Origin: a virus
Taxonomy: Duplodnaviria; Heunggongvirae; Uroviricota; Caudoviricetes
IMG/VR virus record: IMGVR_UViG_2690316131_000005
DNA: 11,820 nt
Reading direction: 5' to 3' (one strand)
The notes under the pieces: generated by a model
Databases searched by the model: none
What the model saw: the letters and a program-made list of their open reading frames with translations, nothing else
Told to the model about the DNA's origin: nothing
Shown: positions 179 to 1,256 of the stretch, in pieces
How the letters are laid out: each line of letters starts with the position of its first letter
How positions within the stretch are numbered: the first letter of the stretch is position 1
Translations under genes and position numbers: made by a program

Positions 179-586
179 TTAAAGATTTGTGGGATCTTTG
201 ATATCCACAGAGCCTAAAGTATGTGCATATGGATGTGCTATTATGCGCCCTCGCAGATTTGCATCATTTTCTAAATTCACTGAACGAAACAGGGCATCAA
301 CAAGGCTCTGTACAATGCAAAGGCAATCGAAGACTGTCGCCGTTTCTGTTTTGATTGATGAAAGAACATGGCCATTCACGCAAACAGAAATTACCCGTTT
401 ATTAACATCGCTTTCCTGCTTTTGATTATCAGAACCATATAGCCCAGAAAAAGCATTGCGCACATTACGAACCATATTATCGATGGTTTCTTTTTCTGCG
501 GTACTAAGGTCAAGAGTAGCCAGTTGTGAACGAACTATATTCGATGCCATTTCCTGTAATGGCGTTGGTAAATCTATAAATTCCAT
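179..586 (-). CDS. hypothetical protein, 135 aa; last gene of a three-gene minus-strand cassette
   Basis: Intact ORF; ATG at 586 with GAGG 5 nt upstream; only 22 nt after the stop of the upstream gene 609..827, suggesting co-transcription. No family recognised. Confidence 0.5.
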   Translation of the reverse strand: MEFIDLPTPLQEMASNIVRSQLATLDLSTAEKETIDNMVRNVRNAFSGLYGSDNQKQESDVNKRVISVCVNGHVLSSIKTETATVFDCLCIVQSLVDALFRSVNLENDANLRGRIIAHPYAHTLGSVDIKDPTNL

Positions 587-608
587 TATTAGCCTCGTTG
601 GTTAGCTA

Positions 609-827
609 TTAACGTGGGTATGTAATCATTCTGGCAATGCTTAATGCCGCTGCTTTTTCCAGATTGGTGATATCCTGCTCCAGAGCGGACAGATTTTCAG
701 CCTGCTTAGCCCTGGCTTCATTGGCCCATTTCAGGTCCTGCACCGCCTTAATTTTCTGGTGCATCCACTCATAAAGTTCATCATCAGTATAGTCTGGCGC
801 GATGATGACGGGGTCTCGTTTCTGCAT
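609..827 (-). CDS. hypothetical small protein, 72 aa, predicted helical/coiled-coil
   Basis: Intact ORF; ATG at 827 preceded by AAGGAG with 5-nt spacer. Same length as K-12 YdfC, but I cannot confirm sequence identity. Confidence 0.5.
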   Translation of the reverse strand: MQKRDPVIIAPDYTDDELYEWMHQKIKAVQDLKWANEARAKQAENLSALEQDITNLEKAAALSIARMITYPR

Positions 828-899
828 GTCGGCTCCTTGTGGTTAGCGTTGCCTGCTTTTTAACCACGTCAGGCGAGGTGGTATCCTCTGAGGGGTCTG

Positions 900-1256
900 T
901 TACTCGAGAGGAAATTGGTTATGAATACAATCAAGTTTTCTTGCCCAGAATGTGGTGGCTAAGTCTTTGACACATCCTTTAAGCCGCAGGGCTCTGACAG
1001 TTTCGCGGGAGCCATCTGCAAAAATTGTGGTCACCTTGTAACTGAAGATGAGTCCTCGCAGTTCGATGACGAAATCGTTGACAATATCTTCGGTGCACTC
1101 ACCAGAGACTTTCTGAAGTAAAGGCGCATACCGCTTAGTTACCGCTCTGATAACTCTTACCTGTCCGGCAATGGCGCTGATATCAATATAAAGCGCCATC
1201 GCTGTTTCTTTGCTGATCCCTGGACGCCTTCCATTCTGATGTTTGACTTCGCCCAC
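900..1256 (-). CDS. hypothetical protein, 118 aa
   Basis: ORF opens with GTG at 1256 preceded by AGAGGA 7 nt upstream; first gene downstream of the dicA-like repressor on the same strand. No family recognised. Confidence 0.45.
   Translation of the reverse strand: MGEVKHQNGRRPGISKETAMALYIDISAIAGQVRVIRAVTKRYAPLLQKVSGECTEDIVNDFVIELRGLIFSYKVTTIFADGSRETVRALRLKGCVKDLATTFWARKLDCIHNQFPLE

Follow-up and report, generated by a model that had tools for sequence, protein, structure and literature searches.

The dicBF operon in lambdoid prophages

The closest described system is the dicBF operon of the Qin prophage of Escherichia coli K-12, which is arranged as dicA/dicC/dicBp-ydfA-ydfB-ydfC-dicF-dicB-ydfD. 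In K-12, the dicBp promoter is PL-like and is repressed by DicA, DicF is processed from a polycistronic RNA, and the functions of ydfABC are unknown (PMC5069750, PMC10448788). Literature searches returned no work on the function of ydfA, ydfB, or ydfC.

The window analyzed here is a stretch of 11,820 nucleotides from a virus record of IMG/VR (IMGVR_UViG_2690316131_000005; Caudoviricetes). Three minus-strand ORFs, located at positions 900 to 1256 (118 aa, GTG start), 609 to 827 (72 aa), and 179 to 586 (135 aa), were confirmed as open frames. Each is preceded by a Shine-Dalgarno-like sequence (GAGGA-7-GTG, AAGGAG-5-ATG, and GAGG-7-ATG, respectively), and the ORFs are separated by only 72 bp (118-aa and 72-aa ORFs) and 22 bp (72-aa and 135-aa ORFs). 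A sequence-only reading had described them as an uncharacterized cassette that takes the place of the dicB operon without resembling it. The present analysis indicates that positions 144 to 1463 very probably correspond to the section next to the promoter of a PL-like early operon of the dicBF type in a lambdoid prophage. The host prophage can be assigned with high confidence to the type that is integrated next to ompW in EHEC and O55:H7 ("PPompW"). The locus is ordinary and was previously annotated, and the dicBF operon is already known. Of the three ORFs, only ydfC (the 72-aa ORF) and the one of 135 aa have the sequence features of genuine genes on the minus strand.

Regulatory region of the operon

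As the sequence-only reading had proposed, the ORFs lie downstream of a DicA-like repressor gene (positions 1464 to 1871, minus strand), the product of which matches the DicA family NF007257 with 241.6 bits (cutoff, 101; E value, 1.6e-72) and is 63% identical to K-12 DicA. Divergent from it is a DicC (Cro-like) gene (positions 1948 to 2175, plus strand), which matches NF007282 with 167.6 bits (cutoff, 130; E value, 5e-50) and also P22_Cro. A dicBp-like (PL-like) promoter region is located at positions 1336 to 1389 on the minus strand, where a promoter-like site, TTGACC-18-TAAATT, was predicted at positions 1365 to 1336. Two copies of the operator motif TAGANNNNCCTAAG occur at this promoter, one spanning the -10 hexamer (positions 1340 to 1353) and the other just upstream of the -35 hexamer (positions 1376 to 1389). 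Three further operator motifs of this type lie in the OR-like region between dicA and dicC (positions 1872 to 1936). The five copies in the window compare with an expectation of 0.34, a number reached in 0 of 200 shuffles, and they are confined to these two regulatory intergenic regions. The 5' leader of the operon transcript (positions 1272 to 1330, minus strand) is recognizable by its match to K-12, with positions 1330 to 1272 being 93% identical to positions 2938 to 2997 of the K-12 locus (L003), upstream of ydfA.

By analogy with K-12 Qin, the one case in which repression by DicA has been demonstrated experimentally, the sigma-70-like promoter with its DicA-type operators would be held off by the adjoining DicA-like repressor, and leftward transcription would begin when repression is lifted. 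The transcript would then run through the K-12-like leader, a replaced segment with an antisense zinc-ribbon gene that is dead here, ydfC, and the 135-aa cassette gene. In intact relatives, it would continue through a long UTR that is processed into DicF and then through dicB, ydfD, an exonuclease gene, xis, and int. The placement of the ORFs in a PL-like early operon, putatively repressed by DicA, is supported, whereas the idea of an alternative cassette that replaces the dicB operon does not, because this is the 5' part of the dicBF operon itself.

IS1 insertion and the distal part of the operon

Positions 1 to 143 are the terminal part of an IS1 element on the minus strand, which comprises the inverted-repeat end GGTAATGCTGCCAA and, in the minus-strand translation, the N terminus of InsA. 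Positions 1 to 149 are 98.7% identical to DNA annotated as InsA (H40), and the prophage homology begins at position 143 in all best matches, which places the insertion 36 bp past the stop codon of the 135-aa ORF. Uninterrupted relatives, which show 99.6 to 99.8% nucleotide identity over positions 143 to 1500, continue with DicF, dicB, ydfD, the exonuclease gene, xis, and int. In one of these relatives (L002), DicF was detected at positions 5442 to 5491 (RF00039; E value, 1.4e-7), syntenic with K-12 dicF, with a score of 43.5 bits that is just below the Rfam gathering score of 48. The relatives also encode DicB (PF05358; 1.7e-37) and the DUF1482 protein YdfD (PF07358; 3.7e-25).

The absence of DicB and DicF from the window was correctly noted in the sequence-only reading. 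The DicB profile PF05358 did not match any of the three ORFs at E values up to 1, and an RNA family search of the window found no DicF. Both dicB and ydfD are absent from the window, and the operon is thus truncated and incomplete here. However, dicF and dicB are missing only because positions 1 to 143 are an IS1 end. With IS1 situated 36 bp past the 135-aa gene, the distal part of the operon with the toxic dicF and dicB would have been separated from its promoter or lost. The insertion also removed the 5' two-thirds of a 77-aa convergent ORF (phrog_10348), the last 18 codons and stop codon of which remain on the plus strand (positions 145 to 201). This remnant translates to ERASTIRVNYFIKDLWDL, followed by the stop, which is the C terminus of the ORF at positions 5826 to 6059 in L002. 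The IS1/prophage junction was absent from 5,426 complete E. coli genomes and from species-representative genomes, the latter by exact search. The apparently novel cassette next to the repressor proves to be the well-known dicBF operon of a common EHEC-type prophage, cut by IS1. It illustrates an annotation trap, in that the diagnostic dicF and dicB can be concealed by an IS insertion or by the edge of a window.

It is very improbable that the three ORFs work together as a substitute for dicF-dicB, for instance as a toxin/antitoxin, division-inhibitor, or phage exclusion module. In favor of such a module, the ORFs are closely packed in one orientation behind a promoter that is under repressor control, all three lack a known function, and they occur together in about 506 of the 5,426 complete E. 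coli genomes. The trio does co-occur in related prophages, yet these genomes represent one near-clonal EHEC prophage lineage only, and its parts assort independently in other prophages. L013 carries the zinc-ribbon segment and ydfC without the 135-aa gene, other prophages carry ydfA (with or without ydfB) and ydfC together with different cassette variants, and some carry a cassette without ydfC. Furthermore, the uninterrupted relatives have both dicF and dicB downstream of these ORFs, which means that the ORFs do not substitute for them. The ORFs have no match to PADLOC or toxin-antitoxin families, and the first of them is probably not a gene. The proposal of a coherent three-gene unit is not supported.

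The description of the ORFs as uncharacterized and without domains holds in the functional sense. Searches of Pfam, NCBIfam, PADLOC, and PDB sequences gave nothing above threshold for the three ORFs, and their PHROG matches are all to families without an assigned function. PADLOC assigned 0 families to all four proteins, and Pfam and NCBIfam searches gave no toxin-antitoxin or defense match above threshold. It does not hold for the identity of the middle ORF, which is recognizable as YdfC.

The first ORF and the antisense zinc-ribbon pseudogene

The first ORF (positions 900 to 1256, minus strand) is called in RefSeq as a 99-aa protein starting from the ATG at position 1199. Opposite it, on the plus strand and with codons exactly in register, is a 66-aa zinc-ribbon pseudogene (positions 921 to 1121) of the ECs_2282 family (NCBIfam NF047912) that is antisense to the operon. 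Like other members of this family, it has the pattern CPEC-x21-CKNC followed by an acidic C-terminal tail, and it differs by one base at the critical codon from the copies that encode WP_001092153.1. Codon 14 (positions 960 to 962) is TAA in the window and GAA in L013, L014, and L020, and therefore at most 13 residues of the zinc-ribbon protein could be made here.

The 118-aa ORF is most likely a noncoding antisense shadow ORF within the operon leader, as several features of the two frames suggest. Among the E. coli copies, the dN/dS ratio in the overlap is 0 to 0.09 for the zinc-ribbon frame versus 1.6 or more for the 118-aa frame. The corresponding counts of synonymous and nonsynonymous substitutions are 6/0 and 15/6 in the zinc-ribbon frame versus 0/6 and 3/18 in the 118-aa frame. 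The RefSeq protein WP_001092153.1 is identical across loci that differ by 5% in DNA, intact zinc-ribbon copies score 57.3 and 50.5 bits against the NF047912 cutoff of 37, and the four cysteines are invariant from E. coli to Klebsiella and Citrobacter. In the 5' 138 nt (46 codons) of the 118-aa ORF, which lie outside the overlap, differences are spread evenly across codon positions, and the score of this frame does not exceed those of the other five.

The alternative that the 118-aa (or 99-aa) ORF encodes a genuine early protein, either with the zinc ribbon as its shadow or with both strands coding, is improbable. The ORF has the Shine-Dalgarno sequence GAGGA 7 nt before its GTG, and its frame is open in every homolog, including those of Klebsiella and Citrobacter. 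It runs in the direction of the neighboring early operon in E. coli (PL-like context) as well as in Klebsiella (PR-like context) and Citrobacter. Between E. coli and Klebsiella, the two frames are only weakly separated, with dN/dS ratios of 0.25 for the zinc ribbon and 0.45 for the 118-aa frame. The ORF also has its own PHROG (21318), but membership in a PHROG reflects gene calls only. Against this alternative, the E. coli substitutions in the overlap favor the zinc-ribbon frame, the nonoverlapping codons show neither codon periodicity nor an advantage over other frames, and the zinc ribbon retains all four cysteines and exceeds a curated family cutoff. An exhaustive profile search of 1.84 billion representative proteins yielded only 9 relatives of the 118-aa protein, all from the same narrow family, and its AlphaFold2 model (pLDDT, 60.9) was too weak to use and gave no fold match. 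The shadow ORF exemplifies a second annotation trap, in which an antisense ORF is called as a gene and given a PHROG once the small zinc-ribbon gene opposite it has acquired a nonsense mutation.

A role of the first gene as an N-like antiterminator was considered and rejected because the translations contain no arginine-rich motif. The N termini of YdfC and the 135-aa protein are acidic or hydrophobic, and that of the 118-aa frame offers just "NGRRPG." Downstream of the zinc-ribbon gene, a potential terminator hairpin with an 8-bp stem has a folding energy no better than that of shuffled sequences (z = -0.59). Comparison of the zinc ribbon with the Lar restriction-alleviation zinc ribbons gave subthreshold matches only (E values, 0.014 and 0.0098), and a Lar-like role in restriction alleviation is only a lead. 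No functional study of the ECs_2282 family was found in the literature.

YdfC and the 135-aa protein

The 72-aa ORF (positions 609 to 827, minus strand) is ydfC, which comes third in the dicBF operon of K-12. Its product shares 68 of 72 residues with K-12 YdfC (94% amino acid identity and 94.6% nucleotide identity) and is annotated in RefSeq as "protein YdfC." The earlier view that this locus is unlike the ydfABC-dicF-dicB operon was therefore incorrect, because its middle ORF is YdfC itself. Differences among close copies of ydfC fall mainly at third codon positions ([0,2,7], [0,4,6], and [0,2,7] for the three positions), with dN/dS ratios of 0.16 to 0.39, and the sequence suggests a helical protein. 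The gene is present in 3,067 of the 5,426 complete E. coli genomes.

The 135-aa ORF ("orfC"; positions 179 to 586, minus strand), which matches phrog_1363 with an E value of 2.3e-45, is a real, fast-evolving gene by the pattern of its sequence variation. Proteins of its family are 124 to 212 aa in total and combine a conserved N-terminal helical module of about 50 aa, with 17 invariant positions, with interchangeable C termini. The frame is the only one open in all variants, and the N-terminal module shows dN/dS ratios of 0.17 to 0.28 and a third-position bias. All proteins returned by a profile search with this module were hypothetical proteins or fragments from Escherichia, none of them fused to a known domain, and the AlphaFold2 model of the 135-aa protein was unusable (pLDDT, 45.4). 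Both YdfC and the 135-aa protein are inferred to be small accessory proteins that are expressed early and reside in the cytoplasm. It is possible, although doubtful, that the family consists of a shared N-terminal docking module with exchangeable C-terminal specificity or effector modules, which would act on the host or on phages as a modulator of the ral/kil/sieB class, whose members provide accessory functions from the early-left region in lambdoid phages. YdfC and this variable cassette family are widespread and so far without a function, and they retain a modest interest.

The cassette slot downstream of ydfC

In all contexts examined, the 135-aa family occupies a single slot between ydfA/ydfC and dicF, which holds all six length variants. 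The insertion point corresponds to the K-12 junction 3562|3563, the boundaries are identical in eight loci, and the slot is vacant in K-12 and L013. Here, the cassette measures 634 bp, comprises the 135-aa gene and the convergent 77-aa ORF, and begins 20 bp past ydfC. The slot is undescribed in the searchable literature, and no functional study of the cassette family was found.

This arrangement raises the possibility, which we consider unlikely, that the ydfC-dicF slot is a hotspot for two-gene convergent cassettes. Each would pair a protein with a constant N terminus and a polymorphic C terminus with a small, lysogen-expressed partner on the opposite strand, as a toxin-immunity-like, exclusion, or anti-defense pair. 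The shared insertion point and the empty slots are consistent with this, as are the C-terminal variants of the cassette protein, of which there are at least six. Each variant is followed by a small convergent ORF with an overlapping or abutting 3' end; these ORFs (63, 69, 76, and 77 aa) are mutually unrelated, and a separate PHROG exists for each of the four. An AGGAGG Shine-Dalgarno sequence precedes the 77-aa ORF, and the 63-aa ORF is identical in E. coli and Salmonella, with two synonymous changes only. However, the pairs are not fixed, since residues 31 to 128 of the 135-aa protein form a core that occurs with two unrelated convergent ORFs, of 77 aa and 63 aa. A search for promoter-like sites of the convergent ORFs found none, and in four of five measured loci only 13 to 19 bp separate their start codons from the cassette boundary (64 bp in L010). 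In addition, the pairs match no toxin, immunity, or defense family, and the 77-aa ORF is frameshifted in one copy (L022). Mosaic recombination between conserved flanks accounts for the pattern without functional pairing. A broader version of the idea carries similarly low odds, namely, that the slot 20 bp past ydfC may be an undescribed diversity hotspot in enterobacterial lambdoid dicBF operons. The exchanged constant-N/polymorphic-C proteins and lysogen-expressed convergent genes, together with the antisense zinc-ribbon gene, would then provide lysogen- or early-expressed exclusion, anti-defense, or toxin-immunity-like functions.

Comparison with known systems

The accessory genes of lambdoid PL operons, such as ral, sieB, kil, and cIII of lambda and kilR and lar of Rac, resemble the genes described here in position and regulation. 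They are likewise small, fast-evolving, and mosaic, with the PL-type promoter on one side and the genes for recombination and integration on the other. A Kil-like role as division inhibitors falls to DicB and DicF. YdfC and the 135-aa protein show no sequence or fold relationship to the PL accessory proteins, and the analogy is positional only.

In layout, the locus matches the K-12 Qin dicBF operon, with a DicA-family repressor encoded on the same strand as the operon, dicC in divergent orientation, and operator repeats in each of the two intergenic regions. Identity to K-12 is 93% in the leader and 94% in ydfC, and the UTR-dicF-dicB-ydfD block of the uninterrupted relatives is 94.6% identical to that of K-12. 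In contrast to K-12, ydfA-ydfB is replaced here by the segment with the antisense zinc-ribbon pseudogene, the 634-bp cassette is inserted 20 bp after ydfC, and IS1 interrupts the operon ahead of dicF. Because DicA is just 63% identical and there is no DNA-level K-12 match upstream of the shared leader, the comparison suggests a prophage of another immunity type than K-12 Qin.

The PPompW prophages of EHEC and O55:H7 (for example, LC567818 and NC_013941 at 1.58 Mb) are the same over positions 143 to 1500 to within 99.6 to 99.8% identity, and they share both the zinc-ribbon nonsense allele and the gene order through paa, hokD, and rem. They differ in that, because the IS1 insertion is absent there, the 77-aa convergent ORF, dicF, dicB, ydfD, the exonuclease gene, xis, and int are all retained.

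Identity of the locus

Downstream of a DicA-family repressor (1464-1871, minus strand; NF007257, 241.6 bits; 63% identity to K-12 DicA), the same strand carries three ORFs of 118 aa (900-1256; GTG start, with a GAGGA Shine-Dalgarno-like element 7 nt 5' of it), 72 aa (609-827; AAGGAG 5 nt 5' of the ATG), and 135 aa (179-586; GAGG 7 nt 5' of the ATG), separated by gaps of 72 and 22 bp. The sequence-only reading had described this arrangement correctly, including coordinates, lengths, and Shine-Dalgarno-like elements, and had found nothing DicB-like in the trio and no DicF in the window; indeed, DicB is matched by none of the three, and Rfam returns no DicF. 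Its view that the trio occupies the place of the K-12 dicB operon yet is unlike it stands for the missing dicB and dicF but fails otherwise, as the 72-aa ORF is ydfC, the leader is K-12-like, and relatives continue into dicF-dicB.

In a megablast search of 5,426 complete Escherichia coli genomes, window 143-1500 occurs at 99.7 to 99.8% identity in many EHEC and O55:H7 chromosomes, with places covering at least 80% of the query in 506 genomes, and it is also found in phage collection records of "PPompW" prophages, which are integrated beside ompW in EHEC and O55:H7. The middle ORF is "protein YdfC" in the RefSeq annotation of the E. coli matches, and its product is identical to K-12 YdfC at 68 of 72 residues (94.6% at the DNA level). 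Aligned at the DNA level with the dicBF operon of K-12 Qin, window 1330..1272 shows 93% identity to the leader immediately 5' of ydfA, and the segment with the 118-aa ORF stands in place of ydfA-ydfB. The uninterrupted PPompW-type relative from O55:H7 CB9615 (L002) differs from K-12 by a 634-bp insertion 3' of ydfC, which carries, in convergent orientation, the 135-aa gene and a 77-aa ORF and past which K-12 sequence picks up at the exact next base (3562|3563 of L003, the K-12 region) and stays 94.6% identical across the long UTR, dicF, dicB, and ydfD. DicF in L002, at the K-12-syntenic position, scores 43.5 bits (E = 1.4e-7), slightly below the Rfam gathering score of 48, and the annotation there includes dicB, a DUF1482 (ydfD) protein, exonuclease, excisionase, and integrase.

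All prophage matches to E. coli genomes begin at window position 143. Window 1-149 shows 98.7% identity to DNA annotated as InsA, and 1-143 contains, on the minus strand, a variant IS1 inverted-repeat end (GGTAATGCTGCC...) followed by the InsA N terminus. The IS1 interrupts the convergent 77-aa ORF, leaving only its final 18 codons (145-201), at a point 36 bp past the stop of the 135-aa gene. dicF and dicB are thus missing from the window because the IS1 end occupies 1-143, where prophage homology stops. The exact IS1/prophage junction was found in none of the 5,426 complete E. coli genomes or the species-representative genome set. The sequence may come from an IS1-rich strain, Shigella for instance, or from an E. 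coli not yet sampled. The locus is very probably the head of a DicA-controlled PL-type operon cut by IS1; of its genes, the antisense one is dead and two small early ones are live.

The dicF-dicB interval of L002 (5248-5453, minus strand) contains a sub-threshold Rfam STnc100 match (32.1 bits, E = 1.4e-4), and a full STnc100 match (100.8 bits) lies 3' of the Q-like gene at window 11200-11372; the two regions may have a structured element in common.

The 118-aa ORF and the zinc-ribbon gene

At loci with 94.7 to 98.9% identical copies of the 118-aa ORF, RefSeq annotates instead a 66-aa plus-strand gene, the "ECs_2282 family putative zinc-binding protein" (WP_001092153.1; equivalent to window 921-1121), whose codon boundaries coincide exactly with the 118-aa ORF's. 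NF047912 (cut-off 37) matches the intact protein (MNTIKFSCPECGGEVFD...CKNCGH...) at 57.3 bits. Codon 14 (960-962), GAA in intact copies, is TAA both in the window and in L001 and L002, relatives with 100% identity. In EHEC and O55:H7, the PPompW lineage is fixed for this nonsense allele, and as a consequence the antisense 99/118-aa ORF is what annotators and PHROGs (phrog_21318) call. Among 60 rows sampled evenly from the 937 genomes with the segment, 33 are window-like ("hypothetical protein") and 25 carry the annotated zinc-binding protein.

Within the overlap, all six differences between two loci with an intact zinc-ribbon gene (L013 and L014) are synonymous in that frame and non-synonymous in the 118-aa frame, and dN/dS against a third, 86%-identical intact copy (L020) is 0.08 to 0.09 in the zinc-ribbon frame versus 1.6 to 1.9 in the 118-aa frame; the zinc-ribbon strand is therefore preferred. 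In the 138 nt outside the overlap, differences are even across codon positions (12, 7, and 10, and similar), and the 118-aa frame is no better than the remaining five. Structure prediction, proposed in the sequence-only reading, gave a weak AlphaFold2 model of the 118-aa product (pLDDT 60.9; residues 1-28 below 50), fold searches returned generic helical matches only, and an exhaustive profile search found only nine relatives. That the frame is nevertheless translated into a functional protein would agree with its staying open in all homologues with a good Shine-Dalgarno element, with its sharing the direction of the adjoining early operon, to which the zinc-ribbon gene is opposed (in E. coli and Klebsiella/Citrobacter contexts), and with the less sharp separation of the frames between genera (dN/dS 0.25 for zinc-ribbon versus 0.45), but this is improbable; the 118-aa ORF probably does not represent a gene.

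Klebsiella/Citrobacter prophages (L015-L019, ca. 4001-4285) also have the zinc-ribbon module, just 3' of cro in the PR-side operon and opposed to early transcription. There, the ca. 75 bp 5' of its ATG, which are conserved among E. coli copies as well, include a weak promoter-like TTAACC-16-TATCCT.

ydfC and the 135-aa cassette family

Both ydfC and the 135-aa ORF are genuine genes. Among close ydfC variants, most differences fall at third codon positions (0, 2, and 7 by position), with dN/dS of 0.16 to 0.39; a divergent 71-aa form has a higher ratio, about 0.6 to 0.75. The 135-aa frame is the sole stop-free one of six in all variants; its N-terminal module shows third-position bias and dN/dS of 0.17 to 0.28, and residues 31-128 show 0.32 to 0.46 in comparisons with two diverged copies, three near-identical copies having too few differing sites to be informative.

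Homologs of the 135-aa protein are restricted to Escherichia and Salmonella and have ca. 50 N-terminal residues in common (17 invariant), followed by mutually unrelated C termini (lengths of 124, 133, 135, 137, 201, and 208 to 212 aa); there is also a second N-terminal subtype, which undergoes recombination inside the gene. Every variant examined lies 3' of ydfA and/or ydfC and 5' of dicF-dicB, except that one Salmonella locus has a KilR-family gene downstream and no dicB, and the loci carry several distinct repressor types. The cassette flanks reach K-12 sequence at one junction in all six cassette-bearing E. coli loci and, in the Salmonella locus, within 4 bp of it; K-12 and L013 have nothing in the slot. 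In variants examined in detail, the gene is followed by a convergent small ORF with an overlapping or abutting 3' end, gene calls next to the 124- and 137-aa variants giving longer convergent ORFs. The small ORFs (63, 69, 76, and 77 aa) are unrelated, each of the four with its own PHROG, and no promoter-like site was found for them. The shared 135-aa protein core occurs with either the 77-aa or the 63-aa ORF, so the pairs are not fixed.

At L022 (3389-3632, minus strand), a frameshift breaks the 77-aa ORF into two frames beside a 69%-identical 135-aa variant, which shows that some prophages either can do without this ORF or are losing it. Contigs of very many draft assemblies stop inside the 135-aa gene (258 contigs for a single 72-aa partial), probably because ydfC and the N-terminal module are repeated in several prophages per genome, breaking assemblies at the variable part.

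Among the 5,426 genomes, the ydfC segment is present in 3,067, the 118-aa/zinc-ribbon segment in 937, the 135-aa gene in 659 (521 with most of its length), and the whole stretch in 506. The trio thus does co-occur, solely in the near-clonal PPompW lineage; elsewhere its segments are mixed, common combinations being zinc-ribbon and ydfC with an empty slot (L013), ydfA-ydfB-ydfC with other cassettes, and a cassette without ydfC. Such independent combinations argue against an obligate three-part system.

As the sequence-only reading held, no domain or function can be assigned to YdfC or the 135-aa protein by profile, solved-structure, or defence-system searches; the AlphaFold2 model of the latter is unusable (pLDDT 45.4), and ydfA, ydfB, and ydfC are treated as functionally unknown in the searchable literature (PMC5069750, PMC10448788). 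The preferred functional reading, though a low-confidence one, places YdfC and the cassette protein among the early accessory functions of the ral/kil/sieB class; the constant N terminus would be a docking module and the exchangeable C termini would be specificity or effector modules.

Regulation and comparison with known systems

Immediately 5' of the point where K-12 leader homology starts, the minus strand has a promoter-like site, TTGACC-18-TAAATT (1365..1336), and dicC (1948-2175, plus strand; NF007282) is divergent from the repressor gene. The motif TAGANNNNCCTAAG has five copies in the window (0.34 expected; none of 200 shuffles reaches five), two at the promoter-like site and three in the dicA-dicC interval, a layout resembling the OL/OR-like operator arrangement reported for K-12. 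K-12 dicBp is PL-like, repressed by DicA, and relieved by the Rem antirepressor (PMC10448788), and the promoter here is predicted to be repressed by the window's own DicA variant. At 7271-7531 (plus strand), an 86-aa ORF occupies the place annotated "rem," the K-12 DicA antirepressor, in the PPompW record LC567818.

The plus strand also carries short broken ORFs (5074-5552), at the position of a RefSeq frameshifted fimbrial protein pseudogene in L002 (10968-11501); the AcfC-family adhesin gene paa (5804-6562), a prophage cargo gene; and a hokD/sok type I toxin-antitoxin locus (6751-7053; sok RF01794, 103.9 bits). Like Stx-type lambdoid phages, the prophage has two tRNA genes (10184-10256 and 10350-10423, plus strand; Rfam RF00005, 72.5 and 68.1 bits) downstream of a Q-antiterminator-like gene (9293-9988).

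The locus is an ordinary prophage locus, annotated before now, which seemed novel because the window edge and IS1 concealed dicF-dicB, ydfC went unrecognized, and one shadow ORF was counted. Mild novelty is confined to the fixed variable slot 5' of dicF and the antisense-oriented small genes, which so far do not make up a new system.
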